Part shown: positions 38,608 through 45,278 of the stretch, one piece after another
How positions within the stretch are numbered: the stretch's first letter is position 1
How the letters are laid out: every line of letters begins with the position of its first letter
Virus record (IMG/VR): IMGVR_UViG_3300030329_005540
Location: 1-64,000 of that record
Reading direction: 5' to 3' (one strand)
Length of the DNA stretch: 64,000 nt
Source: a virus
The notes under the pieces: model-generated
What the model was told of the DNA's origin: nothing
Database searches by the model: none
The model's input: only the letters and a program-made list of their open reading frames with translations
Position numbers and translations under genes: made by a program

Positions 38608-39024
38608 TTATAGTGTCACATCAAAATGCTTTTCAAAGAATTCTTTGTTTAGTTTATTAAGTTCACCCTCGTTTATTTCAATTAATTTAAATCCATTTTT
38701 ATCAAGCCAAGAAGCTTTTTCAAAGTCTCGTTTTATTGCTTTCAAATACTCTAATCTAGAATTATTATGAAAGAATTTATTGAACTCTGTATGCTGACGA
38801 CCCTGAACTTCTACCGCGATTTTCTTAGTGGCGTTGAGTATATCTACCGTCATGCGTGAGCCATAAACAGGAAACTCTTCGTAAACGATATGGTTCTTCC
38901 AAAATTGTTTAAGAAATTGTTTTACTTGAAATTGTATTTTAGAACGAGATTTAGCATCCCATTTTATGAGATACTTAGTAACCTTTCGGCTTTGGGGTCT
39001 ACCGTGTATATTGATTAATCTCAT
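38608..39024 (-). CDS. DUF559/Vsr-like PD-(D/E)XK endonuclease
   Basis: YEEFPV...TVDIL...KIAVEVQGRQH...RDFEKASWLDKNGFKLIEI. Confidence 0.75.
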   Translation of the reverse strand: MRLINIHGRPQSRKVTKYLIKWDAKSRSKIQFQVKQFLKQFWKNHIVYEEFPVYGSRMTVDILNATKKIAVEVQGRQHTEFNKFFHNNSRLEYLKAIKRDFEKASWLDKNGFKLIEINEGELNKLNKEFFEKHFDVTL

Positions 39025-39716
39025 TATTTACCCGTGAAGAAAGCTGGAGCTAAAACTTTTTCAGCTAAGTATATAGAGAAATCATTATCGCTTGGGAAAT
39101 GGACTCCTTCATAGATTCTGGAATCCGCCACCATTTTAGCGGCTTGCAAGAATTGATTCTTAAAAGCTGGATACATATTAGAGCAAATAAAAGCTGCAAA
39201 ATATGCAGATAATGTGTGTCCGCTTGGATAGGACGGAGTGCTTGCTGTGCCTTTTTGGATGGCGTCGTTATATTTTATATCGATGCCGTGATGAGGGGCT
39301 AGTTGATACGGTCTAGGTCTGTTATAATATAGTTTTAACTTCATCGCCAATGTATCAGAATCCTGCATAACTAGCCTTCTGATATCGTCATCCGGAATCT
39401 TTTCTCCAATTAGCTTTTCGTGCAGATCGTATACGAATCCAGCAGGGGCAGCATCCATCTTTTCAAGACTAGAAGTAAAATCCTTAGAATGTTTTTTTTG
39501 TTCTATGAATTTTTTAATATATAAAAGCTCCTGCTTGGTTTGCTCACTTGAATTCGAAGGTGGCGGCATTTTCAGCAGATTTTCGATGCTTATGTCTAAG
39601 TGGACGAGCTTTCTCTCGGAATAGTCTTTGCGAGGATTTTTACCATCATAAACTAACTCGTCTAGTTTTTTAGCCTTAATATCCTCAGAAAAATCTATTT
39701 CGAAATTTTGCTTCAT
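39024..39716 (-). CDS. PAP2-superfamily phosphatase / vanadium haloperoxidase-like protein
   Basis: The three PAP2 motifs: KLYYNRPRP, PSYPSGH, SRIYEGVHFPSD. Confidence 0.85.
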   Translation of the reverse strand: MKQNFEIDFSEDIKAKKLDELVYDGKNPRKDYSERKLVHLDISIENLLKMPPPSNSSEQTKQELLYIKKFIEQKKHSKDFTSSLEKMDAAPAGFVYDLHEKLIGEKIPDDDIRRLVMQDSDTLAMKLKLYYNRPRPYQLAPHHGIDIKYNDAIQKGTASTPSYPSGHTLSAYFAAFICSNMYPAFKNQFLQAAKMVADSRIYEGVHFPSDNDFSIYLAEKVLAPAFFTGK

Positions 39717-39733
39717 TTTTAATCCTTTTATAG

Positions 39734-39741
39734 ATTTACAC
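39734..39741 (-). promoter_or_regulatory. GTGTAAAT putative late-promoter motif
   Basis: Lies between the tmRNA 3' end and the PAP2 gene, followed by SD AAAGGA. Confidence 0.55.
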
Positions 39742-39748
39742 TTAAAAT

Positions 39749-40156
39749 TGGTGGAGGCGGCGGGAATCGAACCCGCGTCTTTAGAACCATCGGCCTAAAT
39801 ATGCTACAAGCTTATCCGGTTTAATACGATACGTGTCTGAAACCGGCAACTTCACGTAAAGTTTGGTCTATCTTTTTTTAAACTACTGGAGACTCAACCA
39901 GACTCAACCAGTGTTTTGCTCGTTATCGACGCCCTAGCTCCTTAACGAGCATCCAGAGTAGGACGGGTAGCTACGCAGCTACAGCAGCCTCTTCAGCCCA
40001 ACCAAACTGAGCGAGAATCGCATCAGCTTCGTCAAGCGAAGGAGCCATATCAACATTATTGGCAGTTGAATACCTTGATAGATGATTTAAGAGGCCGACT
40101 ATCATCCTCTGCTTGCAATTCGGCGTAAGACCCCAAATCGAATCCAGTACGCCCCC
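39749..40156 (-). ncRNA. ssrA: tmRNA (one-piece, 408 nt)
   Basis: 5' GGGGGCGTACTGGATTCGA. 3' T-arm GCGGGTTCGATTCCCGC plus CGCCTCCACCA with an encoded CCA. G3.U70 alanine identity pair. Pseudoknot pairings (GAGG/CCTC with TGATAG/CTATCA; TGCTCGTTA/TAACGAGCA). Tag frame 40063-39971 ends ...AAVAA*. Confidence 0.96.
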
Positions 40157-40176
40157 ATATAAAATTCTACACTTAT

Positions 40177-40851
40177 TTATTTAATTTTCAATTCTTTTTT
40201 CGTTTTACGCGCAAGATCATTGTTGGCCCAAACACCATTTAATTGCTCTGGCCATTTTTCAGGATCATAGTCGTGTCTTTTTACTGAGTTTTTATGGTTG
40301 CTTATAACTTGTAAATTATCTTGATGATGCGCCCCTCCTTTGGCTAAAGGTATTATATGATCCACTACATATTTTCTACCTGCTTTAGAAGATCGGCGGC
40401 GAGCATCCTCGTAAAAGGCTTTCATTTTTTCTTCGTCTGAATCAGGCAGTATGGCGTTGATTTTTATAGCCGCTCTCTTTTTTGCCAAAGCGTTCATTAA
40501 TGGCCTATTGTTTTTTTTATAATTAGAATTATACTCGGCAACGTGATCAGCATTTTTTCCGCGCCATTTTTTCATGGACTTAGCTCGTTCTTTACTGTTC
40601 TTTTTCCTATATTCTTTTACCCTCTCTTTGTTTTTTTCACACCAAATTCGACAATATTCTCTATTTTTTTTTCTATTTTCAGGCCTTGCGTTGTACGCCC
40701 TTCTGCGGGCACGTACTTTTTCTTTTTTCTCTTCTGGTAAACTATGAAACCTTTCACGATCCTGTTTTGCTCGGCATGAGCCACAGGTCGCTCTGTGTTT
40801 TCCGAATTTCGAAGTAGGCTTTTCTTCTTTGCATCTACGACAAATCTTCAT
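40177..40851 (-). CDS. HNH endonuclease (putative homing)
   Basis: N-terminal CxxC...CxxC, basic helical linker, and YVVDHIIPLAKGGAHHQDNLQVISNHKNSVK. Confidence 0.88.
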   Translation of the reverse strand: MKICRRCKEEKPTSKFGKHRATCGSCRAKQDRERFHSLPEEKKEKVRARRRAYNARPENRKKNREYCRIWCEKNKERVKEYRKKNSKERAKSMKKWRGKNADHVAEYNSNYKKNNRPLMNALAKKRAAIKINAILPDSDEEKMKAFYEDARRRSSKAGRKYVVDHIIPLAKGGAHHQDNLQVISNHKNSVKRHDYDPEKWPEQLNGVWANNDLARKTKKELKIK

Positions 40852-40852
40852 A

Positions 40853-41947
40853 TCAAGATTTCTTTAAAGTGTCTCTAAATTTATTAAACAAATACTTGCC
40901 AATTTCTTTATTCTCTTCGAAGTATTTTCTAAGGTTATCAATACCTTGGTGCTGTTGTTTAAACTCTAAGCCGGTTTCTTGTTTGACCTCTTCGATAAGT
41001 TCTTCTGAAACAGTCACCCAAGCACCAGCCTTTTTAGCCATGTCCCAAGCGAGCATCATATCAACTACCTCGTACTCCACCCAAATACTTTTACCGCCGA
41101 CGCGGCCATAGCGAATAGGGTATCTTACTTCTATCCCCGTTTTTTCATTTGCGCTTTTACGGAAAACTACTTTACAATAATGACCAAGGTGATCGCCCTT
41201 ACCATTCGGCTGAGTAGTGATTAAATCTTTTACGTAGCGAGGCTGAAACTCTAAAATCCAATCACTGTAATGTAATATTGCGTTGCCTCCAGAAGCATTG
41301 GTCAATCTTGGGTCAGTTTTTTCATACGGGTTAATACTAACTTTGCTTCTAACTTGAGAAATCATATAACAAATATGTCCTCGGGTAGCTAAACCCAACG
41401 CCATTCTTTTTAGGAAGTCCGATGTCAAAAGAGAACCGCCAGCTACTTTAACTGCTTCGTCAGACCCTTTTTCTAAATCACCTCTGGGAACCAAAGCATC
41501 CATAGAGTCAATGATAAACATGTATCTTGTATCAGAAGGATTATCTTTGACCATCTGCCGAATAAAATCAATAACGGTTTCGTAAACATTGCATTTGAAC
41601 ACGAACCACTTATTTTCATCTGTATCTACTCCCGATCTCTCTACCATATCTGTAGACAGTCTTCCTTCGGACTTGATGTAGACGACCATAGAGTTATCCA
41701 TTTTTTGAAAGTTGCGGGCAAAGGATAACGAGCACGAAGTCTTTCCTCCTTCTGCTACTCCTGAAGCTCTAATTATTCCGGGTTTAATACCGCCGCCCAT
41801 TTCAATGTCCATTAAAAGGCTGCCGCTGGATATAGTATATTCTCTCTCTTCTTCGAAATTATAATGATCCCCTTTATGTTCTTTGAGGTACGCTTGAATT
41901 TGCTCTAGGGGAGAGGTCGATACGGTCTCTGTTTTCTTTTTTCTCAT
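40853..41947 (-). CDS. recA: RecA/UvsX-like recombinase
   Basis: ISSGSLLMDIEMGGG, Walker A GVAEGGKTS, Walker B FIIDSMDALVP, ISQVR, SGGNAILHYS, KKAGAWV. Confidence 0.9.
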   Translation of the reverse strand: MRKKKTETVSTSPLEQIQAYLKEHKGDHYNFEEEREYTISSGSLLMDIEMGGGIKPGIIRASGVAEGGKTSCSLSFARNFQKMDNSMVVYIKSEGRLSTDMVERSGVDTDENKWFVFKCNVYETVIDFIRQMVKDNPSDTRYMFIIDSMDALVPRGDLEKGSDEAVKVAGGSLLTSDFLKRMALGLATRGHICYMISQVRSKVSINPYEKTDPRLTNASGGNAILHYSDWILEFQPRYVKDLITTQPNGKGDHLGHYCKVVFRKSANEKTGIEVRYPIRYGRVGGKSIWVEYEVVDMMLAWDMAKKAGAWVTVSEELIEEVKQETGLEFKQQHQGIDNLRKYFEENKEIGKYLFNKFRDTLKKS

Positions 41948-43361: not shown

Positions 43362-44323
43362 ACGCTTCTTATTTTATTAATGTTATCTTTATACCAATTA
43401 TAAGTGCTGACAAGTCCATCTTCTAAAGAGATTTTATGCTTCCAACCTAATTTATTTATCCTTTGATTATCTAGTACTCTTTTAAGGGTTCCGTCAGGTT
43501 TCGATAAATCGAATGTAATTTCGCCCTCGTATCCAACTGTCTTTGCTATTAGATGGGATAGGTTTTTGATAGAAATTTCTTCTCCCGTTCCGATGTTAAG
43601 TTGAGAAATACCCTGAGAATAGATATCTTTAGCTGATACATTTTCGAGAGCGTAAACACACGCATCAGCTAAATCGTCTACATGCATAAACTCTCTCATG
43701 GCTTCGCCAGTGCCCCAAACCTCGACGCTGGGAGCGCCTGATTCTTTCGCCTCGTGAAATCTTCTGATGAGAGCCGGGAGAACGTGTGAGTTTTCCGGGT
43801 GGAAATTATCGTTCTCGCCATATAAATTCGCGGGCATAACAGAAAAGAAGTCTTTTTCGTACTGTTTGTAATAGCTCTCGCACATCTTTATACCAGCGAT
43901 CTTAGCGATGGCGTAAGGCTCGTTGGTTGGTTCGAGAGGAGACCTAAGTAAATACTCTTCTCTAATAGGCTGATCTGTAAATTTTGGATAAATACAAACG
44001 CTACCCAAAAAGAGTAGCTTTTTAACCCCTAGCTCATAACTAGAATTAATTAAATTATTTTGTATTTGTAAATTTTCATAAATAAAATCTGCGCGGTATA
44101 CGTTATTGGCGTGAATGCCACCGACTTTCGCAGCAGCGTCAATCACGATATCAGGCTGGCAACTCCAAAGATAACGATAGACTCCTTCTTGATCAAGGAG
44201 GTTAAGCTCTCCTCTAGTTTGAGTCATGACATTATTGTATCCCTTGGACTTAAGCCGTCTAAGGATAGCAGACCCCACCATCCCACGATGGCCCGCTACA
44301 AATATTTTATCTTCTTTATTCAT
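43358..44323 (-). CDS. fcl: GDP-L-fucose synthase
   Basis: AGHRGMVGSA, AAAKVGGIHAN, LEPTNEPYAIAKIAG, SHVLPAL, KPDGT. Confidence 0.96.
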   Translation of the reverse strand: MNKEDKIFVAGHRGMVGSAILRRLKSKGYNNVMTQTRGELNLLDQEGVYRYLWSCQPDIVIDAAAKVGGIHANNVYRADFIYENLQIQNNLINSSYELGVKKLLFLGSVCIYPKFTDQPIREEYLLRSPLEPTNEPYAIAKIAGIKMCESYYKQYEKDFFSVMPANLYGENDNFHPENSHVLPALIRRFHEAKESGAPSVEVWGTGEAMREFMHVDDLADACVYALENVSAKDIYSQGISQLNIGTGEEISIKNLSHLIAKTVGYEGEITFDLSKPDGTLKRVLDNQRINKLGWKHKISLEDGLVSTYNWYKDNINKIRSV

Positions 44324-44324
44324 A

Positions 44325-45278
44325 TCAACGAGACAATATTCCTTCTATTGTTTTAACATAATTAGGTACAATTACTTCCCAACTAAAATTATCTTCTGCA
44401 TATTTTCTAATATCTTTTCTCATAGAAATAGATTTTTGTCTATTTAATGCTATTGTTTTTCGTATAAAGTCTTCGTCTTGGATTTTATCTTCTGGAATTA
44501 CATCAATAAATGGTAAATTAGTATCTAAGTTAGCCGTTGTGTATTCCGATATAACCAAACCCAACCCCGCCATCAATCCTTCTAGACATGACAATGAATG
44601 AGCTTCCCCATCGCTTAATAAAATCATGTTTGCATAATTAGTTAAATTATTATATAAATATTCTTTATCCCATTCACCTAAATATTCTGGGCTATTAATA
44701 TCAAATCTATCATCTGCATGATTTCCGGCGAAATCAATATTCATCGCCTTACCTTGGAATAAATGCTGCCTTTTTCTGTAGTCTATTTTAGCGAGGTATA
44801 TTGACGTATTTGGTTTAGAGCAGTTTTCGTCAAATCTAAACAGATCGTTTCTGGCTCCGTTGGGCGTGACAAAAACATTTTCCTCTGGTATGCCTTTGAG
44901 CAGCATAAAGGTTTTTTTAATGCCTTCTGAAAGAGCAAAAACGTAACAAGGAACTCGGTTATAATAGTTAAAGACCTGAGAATAAGCGCCGTGCTTCGCG
45001 GGCTGCTCTAGATATGCGTAATGACATGTCGCCGCTTTATGTGGACACTTCAGGTAGTCTAACAGCGGAAGATAATCATCGTATTGTAAATGTACAAAAT
45101 GAGGGTTGAAAGAATTAACATCCTTGATGACCTCGGTTAAATCAGGCTTGTTAAAGATCGCTACCTCATGCCCTAGATCGAGAAGTCCCTCTGAATAATC
45201 CCAGATTAAAGACTCAATTGCGCCCCAGCCTTTCGGCGGGATAGGCATCAGACCCGGCCCTATTATACCTATCTTCAT
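44325..45278 (-). CDS. Glycosyltransferase, GT4-like (paralogue 1)
   Basis: PIPPKGWGAIE, PNG, KIDYRKRQ, EAHSLSCLEGLMAG, FSW. Confidence 0.8.
   Translation of the reverse strand: MKIGIIGPGLMPIPPKGWGAIESLIWDYSEGLLDLGHEVAIFNKPDLTEVIKDVNSFNPHFVHLQYDDYLPLLDYLKCPHKAATCHYAYLEQPAKHGAYSQVFNYYNRVPCYVFALSEGIKKTFMLLKGIPEENVFVTPNGARNDLFRFDENCSKPNTSIYLAKIDYRKRQHLFQGKAMNIDFAGNHADDRFDINSPEYLGEWDKEYLYNNLTNYANMILLSDGEAHSLSCLEGLMAGLGLVISEYTTANLDTNLPFIDVIPEDKIQDEDFIRKTIALNRQKSISMRKDIRKYAEDNFSWEVIVPNYVKTIEGILSR

Follow-up and report, generated by a model that had tools for sequence, protein, structure and literature searches.

The tags encoded by tmRNAs are textbook short degrons, as exemplified by the E. coli tag ANDENYALAA. 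Long tags have, to our knowledge, been studied only in Mycoplasma, where the lengthening accompanied a protease switch. ClpXP and ClpAP recognize the ALAA end of the E. coli tag, whose more upstream residues serve as the binding site of the adaptor SspB (PMC3985003). In Mycoplasma, ClpXP has been lost, and the longer tag has since co-evolved with Lon (PMC3985003, PMC9382460). Moreover, tmRNAs are known from phages: they have been described in mycobacteriophages and Bacillus phage G (PMC4131195), in huge phages (PMC7162821), and in Melnitz and the pelagimyophages, the Melnitz form being a permuted two-piece molecule (PMC9004378).

We then focused on a window of 64,000 nucleotides (the whole stretch of DNA that was analysed), which is part of an 85.7-kb IMG/VR virus record found by CheckV to be 54% complete. 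A single tmRNA was called in it by ARAGORN at 39749-40156 on the minus strand, the strand on which all window features given below are located; it is a one-piece molecule of 408 nt with an encoded CCA end. The Rfam model RF00023 aligned to it end to end (model positions 1-374, 136.2 bits against a gathering score of 47, E 3.6e-53), with the extra tag codons appearing as one insertion of approximately 58 nt. The 5' strand of the acceptor stem, GGGGGCG (40150-40156), places G3 in a G3.U pair, as in alanine identity; this pair is kept in 14/14 family tmRNAs, and acceptor pairs 4 and 6 covary across these 14 members (GC/AU and CG/UA). The T-arm GCGGG-UUCGAUU-CCCGC, followed by the 3' acceptor strand and ACCA, occupies 39749-39776 in the Rfam alignment, and two of its stem pairs covary among the 14 members (GC/AU and CG/GC). 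Pseudoknot 1 (PK1; 40075-40115) consists of a hairpin, AGAGG/CCUCU, and a second stem, GAUAG/CUAUC, both placed by the Rfam alignment and by covariation: the hairpin pairs covary in the 14 members, and the second stem is paired at five positions in all 14, with compensatory changes at two. In total, compensatory changes were observed at 18 predicted pairs in these 14 sequences, distributed over the acceptor stem, the T-arm, helix 2 and the PK1 hairpin. In addition, the end of the tag frame (AAVAA and the UAG stop) sits at helix 5 of the RF00023 model, as expected ahead of PK2. The features that define a one-piece tmRNA, namely a full-length RF00023 match, an alanine-type acceptor with T-arm and CCA, PK1, a GCN resume codon with A at -4, and an open frame with a hydrophobic end, were all found; the tag length of 30 is the one trait that falls outside the usual range of approximately 10-15. 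The gene in the window is a one-piece tmRNA with every sequence and structure hallmark, and its helices are kept by compensatory changes.

The tmRNA lies in the replication and recombination module of the phage. Its neighbours include a DnaE-type polymerase, a PD-(D/E)XK exonuclease, a primase, DnaB, a UvsX/RecA-like recombinase and two HNH endonucleases; nearby, a sugar-nucleotide operon begins and a PAP2 gene is present. With the virus record, this neighbourhood and the agreement between ARAGORN and RF00023 all pointing the same way, the original prediction of a phage tmRNA held. The conserved upstream neighbour is the recombinase (40853-41947; PHROG 97, Pfam RecA), and an HNH endonuclease gene (40177-40851; PHROG endonuclease VII / HNH, Pfam HNH_5) is inserted between it and the tmRNA. 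On the other side, a PAP2-family gene (39024-39716; Pfam PAP2, 9e-16) is inserted between the tmRNA and an ORF of 138 aa (38608-39024), a core gene which in the relatives' loci directly follows the tmRNA on its 3' side after a gap of 8 nt. The order in relatives is recombinase, tmRNA (about 34 nt further on, a distance found in 27 of 46 loci), 138-aa ORF, DnaB and primase. The HNH gene is missing at this position from nearly all relatives, and none of the 80 relatives' loci has a PAP2 gene there. The tmRNA itself occupies the site between the recombinase and the 138-aa ORF in only 16 of the 57 relatives with enough flanking sequence and, being held at this hot-spot by only part of them, is an accessory gene of the phage family. 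The interval (38608-41947 in the window; loci L004-L083) behaves as an insertion hot-spot, containing in different phages a tmRNA, tRNA-Arg/Gly/Val, an HNH gene or nothing. The 138-aa ORF was considered as a tmRNA partner or mobile cassette and rejected, as it is a core gene present with or without a tmRNA.

As to protein partners, no SmpB gene was found in the window's record or in a complete relative of 178 kb (G001), so that the SmpB of the host would have to serve. A ClpP that might act as a dedicated tag protease is absent from the window's record, and no Clp-type unfoldase was found in the complete relative. The latter does encode a ClpP-family ORF of 259 aa (positions 138192-138971 of its contig), whose best matches are head-maturation proteases; it is located between a PhoH-like gene and glycan genes (epimerase, sulfotransferase), outside any head module.

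A consensus scan predicted that the tmRNA has its own promoter at 40164-40191, with TTGAAA, a 16-nt spacer, TAGAAT and 7 nt to G1 of the tmRNA (10/12 matches). Within it lies a GTGTAG box (40167-40172), which corresponds to a GTGTAA/G box that 29 of the family's 46 distinct loci have, with its start 13-17 nt 5' of the tmRNA. From this sigma-70-like candidate promoter and the family box, the tmRNA appears to be transcribed alone, from about its mature 5' end. The GTGTAA/GTGTAG box resembles the -10 region of a phage promoter class, and a second AGTGTAAAT is found directly past the tmRNA, before the PAP2 gene (39727-39735, minus strand). RNA-library contigs from four marine metatranscriptome studies include relatives of the tmRNA body with 90-95% identity over 39797-40118; the adjoining HNH gene has no such cover, although uncovered parts are not evidence of absence. 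Since libraries of this kind can contain DNA, the cover gives a weak hint of expression only.

The tag assigned by ARAGORN is ANNVDMAPSLDEADAILAQFGWAEEAAVAA, encoded by positions 94-186 of the gene (window 40063-39971). The frame starts at the resume codon GCC (40061-40063), comprises 30 codons and ends with the UAG stop at 39971-39973, as supported by ARAGORN, Rfam and dN/dS. This tag is identical to the one first read from the window, with its ANN start, its VAA end and TTCAACT directly ahead of GCC. As the alanine charged on the tmRNA precedes the 30 encoded residues, the peptide added to a protein would have 31.

Related viral contigs were collected by a recombinase search, which gave 299, of which 80 were fetched; this sample was not selected by tag. 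Wherever ARAGORN called a tmRNA next to the recombinase in these 80 loci, its tag was long and homologous. A second set came from a degenerate DNA pattern for the core of the tag: 84 viral loci with 73 complete tmRNAs, 46 of them distinct, whose tags have 30 aa (n = 10), 31 aa (n = 24), 34 aa (n = 2) or 35 aa (n = 10). They share the pattern A[NDK]xx[VI]DM, an optional E[FML], APS[LV]xEAD[AE]ILA[KQR][FHYL]G[WFY], an acidic stretch and a hydrophobic end. Residues S9, E12, A13, D14, I16, L17, A18 and G21 are invariant. The C-terminus is more variable than the helix, with AAVAA, AAMAA, AALAA, AALVA, LQLAA, LQPVA, LLMAA, AAVAV and, rarely, LLLVE; the last of these, present in a few members, is unlike a ClpX-type end. 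The complete 178-kb relative has a 35-residue tag, ANSDIDMEFAPSLAEADEILAKFGYVEEEELQLAA, with its tmRNA at a different genomic place. The family is widespread, occurring in marine and estuarine metagenomes, and a tag of 30-35 aa is its normal state and not an oddity of one genome. The length, first described as exceptional, is so when compared to the bacterial norm, but not within this phage family, nor beside the long tags of other phages described below.

AlphaFold2, run on the tag alignment, predicted that residues 10-19 are helical (block pLDDT 87) and flanked by flexible segments. Together with the invariant residues, this marks codons 9-21, SLDEADAILAQFG (40001-40039), as a conserved, N-capped acidic helix module, whereas codons 26-30, AAVAA (39974-39988), form a hydrophobic C-terminal end of the ssrA-degron type, judging by sequence; that it would act as a degron is suggested by what is published on the ALAA end (PMC3985003). 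The S-x-x-E start is also found in ordinary protein helices, e.g., EKPLAPSLxEADAILAAA of Gfo/Idh/MocA-type enzymes, and as the other matches to the pattern were such helices, the motif is best described as a helix with a Ser N-cap. The tag has a net charge of -6. In hydrophobic moment it does not significantly exceed shuffled sequences (p about 0.16), so that the word amphipathic is only loosely apt: the middle of the tag, originally described as an amphipathic helix, is again predicted to be helical, but the label amphipathic is a weak one. A profile search of PDB sequences and a Pfam scan gave no partner or inhibitor-like similarity for the tag; a Pfam match to DksA-like_N (E 0.035) was dismissed as noise.

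Based on these results, we favour the reading that the gene is a working, separately transcribed phage tmRNA, in which the tag helix is an extra recognition element that sets the adaptor or protease handling tagged proteins and the rate at which it does so; we give this reading a probability of roughly 0.55. Host AlaRS would charge the phage tmRNA, and EF-Tu and SmpB of the host would bring it to stalled ribosomes in the infected cell, where alanine and 30 further residues would be added to the rescued protein. The tag itself may be regarded as having three modules. The first, ANNVDMAP, is a flexible beginning like that of ssrA tags. The second, SLDEADAILAQFGW, is the acidic helix specific to the phage, N-capped by S-x-x-E and closed by Gly and an aromatic residue. 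The third, AEEAAVAA, joins acidic residues to a hydrophobic C-terminus such as ClpXP/ClpAP-type proteases read. Host AAA+ proteases would recognize this C-terminus, and the helix could act as an additional recognition element, comparable to the SspB-binding part of the E. coli tag or to the Lon-read extension of Mycoplasma, setting which adaptor or protease handles the tagged proteins during infection, and how fast. Our best guess for the invariant E12, A13, D14, I16, L17, A18 and G21 is that they resemble a binding epitope with an adaptor- or protease-routing role. As the helix is kept by selection in dozens of phages and occurs in no scanned bacterial genome, among the matches listed, it probably serves a fate of rescued proteins chosen by the phage.

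It could also be, and this is the main rival reading, that the tag is not mainly a degradation signal, but a decoy occupying or blocking host ClpXP/SspB or Lon, a handle for sequestering incomplete proteins, or a signal by which the phage senses how many ribosomes are stalled. Conservation is indeed higher in the helix than at the C-terminus, where LLLVE is found in some members, the net charge of the tag is -6, and the ClpP-family gene of the complete relative lies next to PhoH, outside any head module; in addition, the recurrence of unrelated long tags in phage tmRNAs suggests that phages want something that the short host tag does not give. Nevertheless, nearly all members have a hydrophobic C-terminus of the [AV][AV] type, as in known degrons, and the PDB profile and Pfam searches of the tag yielded no partner or inhibitor-like match, for which reasons we consider a function mainly other than degradation unlikely.

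That the long tag was merely inherited from the tmRNA of the host lineage, with no phage-specific meaning, is improbable. Its ANN/AND start and AAVAA end do look like those of bacterial tags, and long tags do exist in Mycoplasma (PMC3985003, PMC9382460). However, 185,579 bacterial and archaeal species, each represented by one genome, were scanned three times, with the peptide core, with the degenerate coding pattern APSxxEAD[AE]ILA and with the 5' RNA signature of the family, and the tag core or RNA signature was recovered only on phage-type contigs of 793 bp and 20 kb, among the matches listed. These two contigs, the only ones with family tmRNAs among those matches, do not represent host chromosomes. 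The 793-bp contig belongs to the MAG 'Dehalococcoidia bin53p', a bin with eight different tmRNAs on contigs of less than 1 kb or a few kb, which indicates contamination. The other has the tmRNA at the end of the 20-kb contig NYZO01000117.1 of the MAG 'archaeon ARS54'; as it also carries the phage Gmd gene and the recombinase (82% identity), it is a misbinned phage contig. A search of bacterial genomes with Gmd returned two MAG contigs only, with the recombinase 81-82% and Gmd 69-70% identical; both proved to be misbinned phage contigs carrying the recombinase, and identified no host. The second of them, CAZYHH010000001.1 (44 kb), was assigned to a 'Pseudomonadales' MAG and, as no tmRNA native to that bin passes the Rfam cut-off, it offers no host tag for comparison. 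A recent copy derived from a host tmRNA was likewise rejected, as a similar tag or RNA occurs only on misbinned phage contigs among the matches listed. Overall, the concern that bacteria might normally have equally long tags of this kind found no support: no scanned bacterial genome has such a tag, among the matches listed. No close relatives were found among cultured phages either, the DNA polymerase being at most 32% identical; a tblastn search with the tag against 50,697 cultured phage records gave no match, and the only nucleotide match to the tmRNA covers its 3' 66 nt, in a Tunturiibacter phage.

We also considered whether translation could resume further downstream, giving a shorter tag (EADEILA..., 18-21 aa). 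ARAGORN itself chooses this start in six relatives (L068, L075, L076, L078, L080 and L086). These six, however, are also open from the homologous GCC/GCT, and even the alternative start would leave a tag of 18-21 residues. In the window tmRNA the resume context is UUCAACU followed by GCC, and it is this GCC that Rfam matches with the resume codon of the consensus. The codon is GCC or GCT in each of the 46 distinct tmRNAs of the family, and the frame is open from it in every one; together with the coding-type conservation described below, this goes beyond chance. Moreover, an A at -4 (40067 in the window) is present in all nine upstream hexamer variants of the family and precedes GCC/GCT, not the GAA; it is the equivalent of E. 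coli A86, located 4 nt ahead of the resume codon, which is the dominant and most conserved determinant of the frame (PMC2481249). Every difference in tag length within the family is a multiple of three, including an indel of 3 nt directly behind the resume codon (ANNVD versus ANNIVD) and a 6-nt insertion, ME[FML], after the Met. Residues D6, A10, P11 and S12, which lie between GCC and the later start, 5' of the GAA, are invariant or nearly so and vary in their codons synonymously. On this combination of alignment, A(-4), in-frame indels and residue conservation, the resume codon is assigned to GCC and the whole 30-codon frame is predicted to be read, in agreement with the original prediction; a downstream resume position is very improbable.

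Selection on the tag was evaluated by pairwise Nei-Gojobori comparison of the 46 distinct sequences, which gave a dN/dS of 0.27 for the tag, unchanged when the columns fixed by the search pattern were left out, and 0.19 for the middle segment. In the same alignment, the two shifted frames gave 1.65 and 1.05 for the whole tag, and 1.84 and 0.92 for its middle segment. The coding-type conservation that had been proposed as a check on the middle segment is thus present. The invariant Ser is encoded by all four TCN codons, and D6, A10, G24 and E27 differ only synonymously, at third positions. These substitution patterns show that the 30-codon frame is selected as a peptide. It has to be considered that the middle segment could instead be kept for the RNA fold of this part of the message: the stretches AUGGCUCCUUC and GAUUCUCGC show no nucleotide variation even at third positions, and a small CUUC/GAAG hairpin is predicted. 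Substitutions in the middle nevertheless concentrate at synonymous sites (pS 0.54 versus pN 0.16), and the helices predicted by RNAalifold within the frame show one-sided or wobble changes and almost no compensatory pairs, which makes an RNA fold a poor explanation of the conservation; some RNA constraint may be superimposed, as two stretches are invariant at every position. The further suggestion that a separate small peptide (MAPSLDE...) begins at the internal AUG is hardly credible, for although the Met is found in 45 of 46 distinct family sequences, no Shine-Dalgarno-like sequence precedes it, it is replaced by Thr in L131 and by Phe in another member, in-frame conservation extends upstream of it, and two codons are inserted after it in some members.

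We then compared the tag with those of other phage tmRNAs. The mycobacteriophage Bxz1 (cluster C) likewise has a one-piece tmRNA with a long tag, of 25 aa (ATDTDATVTDAEIEAFFAEEAAALV), and a similar layout, with an acidic stretch, aromatic residues, EEAA and a hydrophobic end. Unlike the window tmRNA, it is located in a tRNA cluster, and the phage lineage and host phylum are unrelated; homology of the two tags was rejected, as BLASTP gave no alignment and the layout alone is alike. In the crAss-like Cellulophaga phage phi14:2, the tag frame of the tmRNA is open for about 38 aa, beyond the shorter call of ARAGORN, with an unrelated sequence. This tmRNA (KC821624.1, 4031-4500) is an ARAGORN call below the Rfam gathering score, and is unannotated in the record, where the small hypothetical CDSs gp012-gp014 overlie it. 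Tunturiibacter phage Tunturi_4 has a permuted two-piece tmRNA with a 33-residue tag, ANTVTSTIRNVASVRTGFFRSAEPITNRYAVAA, also unrelated in sequence. Its tmRNA (PP885687.1, about 43879-44410) is found in a gene annotated as 'RF-1 domain peptide chain release factor' (ArfB-like, 43946-44293); it is possible that this phage possesses two adjacent ribosome-rescue functions, or else that the annotated CDS overlaps the tmRNA. In Bacillus phage G the tag is of ordinary length (13 aa), and the Mordin tag, from a doubtful permuted call, has 10 aa. About 55 nt upstream of the phage G tmRNA, inside a tRNA cluster, ARAGORN called a tRNA with anticodon UUA, which reads the UAA stop (JN638751.1, about 411932-412005).

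With 25 aa in Bxz1, 33 in Tunturi_4 and about 38 in phi14:2, long tags recur in phages in this small sample, with unrelated sequences. No description of such recurrence, or of a conserved extended tag, was found in the open-access literature searched. It is possible, and we propose it tentatively, that unrelated phage lineages independently lengthened the tag into a functional module, and that here an invariant, acidic, capped helix hands rescued proteins to a partner chosen by the phage, be it a different protease or adaptor, a sequestering factor or a decoy by which host proteolysis is jammed. If true, trans-translation would be a tool of host takeover and not mere housekeeping. Altogether, a phage-only lineage of long-tag tmRNAs and the recurrence of long tags elsewhere suggest that phages reprogram the fate of incomplete proteins. 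The phage tag could also serve synthetic biology as an orthogonal degron or handle, like the Mesoplasma tag. The one-piece tmRNA as such is known; the new element is that a phage-only lineage of it has an extended tag that is conserved.

The tags of Mycoplasma and Mesoplasma (Gur & Sauer 2008; Ge & Karzai 2009, cited in PMC3985003 and PMC9382460) are likewise markedly longer, and their extra residues carry recognition determinants, several of them read by Lon. They are chromosomal, belong to hosts lacking ClpXP and have an AFA end, whereas the phage tag has a VAA end and an unrelated sequence, so that the likeness is one of functional analogy only. The window tmRNA shares with bacterial SsrA (RF00023) the tRNA-like domain with G3.U and CCA, PK1, A(-4), the GCN resume codon, the A-N-x start and hydrophobic ...AA end of the tag and, presumably, the need for a separately encoded SmpB. 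Unlike bacterial SsrA, it belongs to a phage lineage found on no scanned bacterial chromosome among the matches listed, has its own predicted promoter at the mature 5' end, and is a phage-encoded gene whose tag has 30 rather than about 10 residues, with a conserved helix module inserted.
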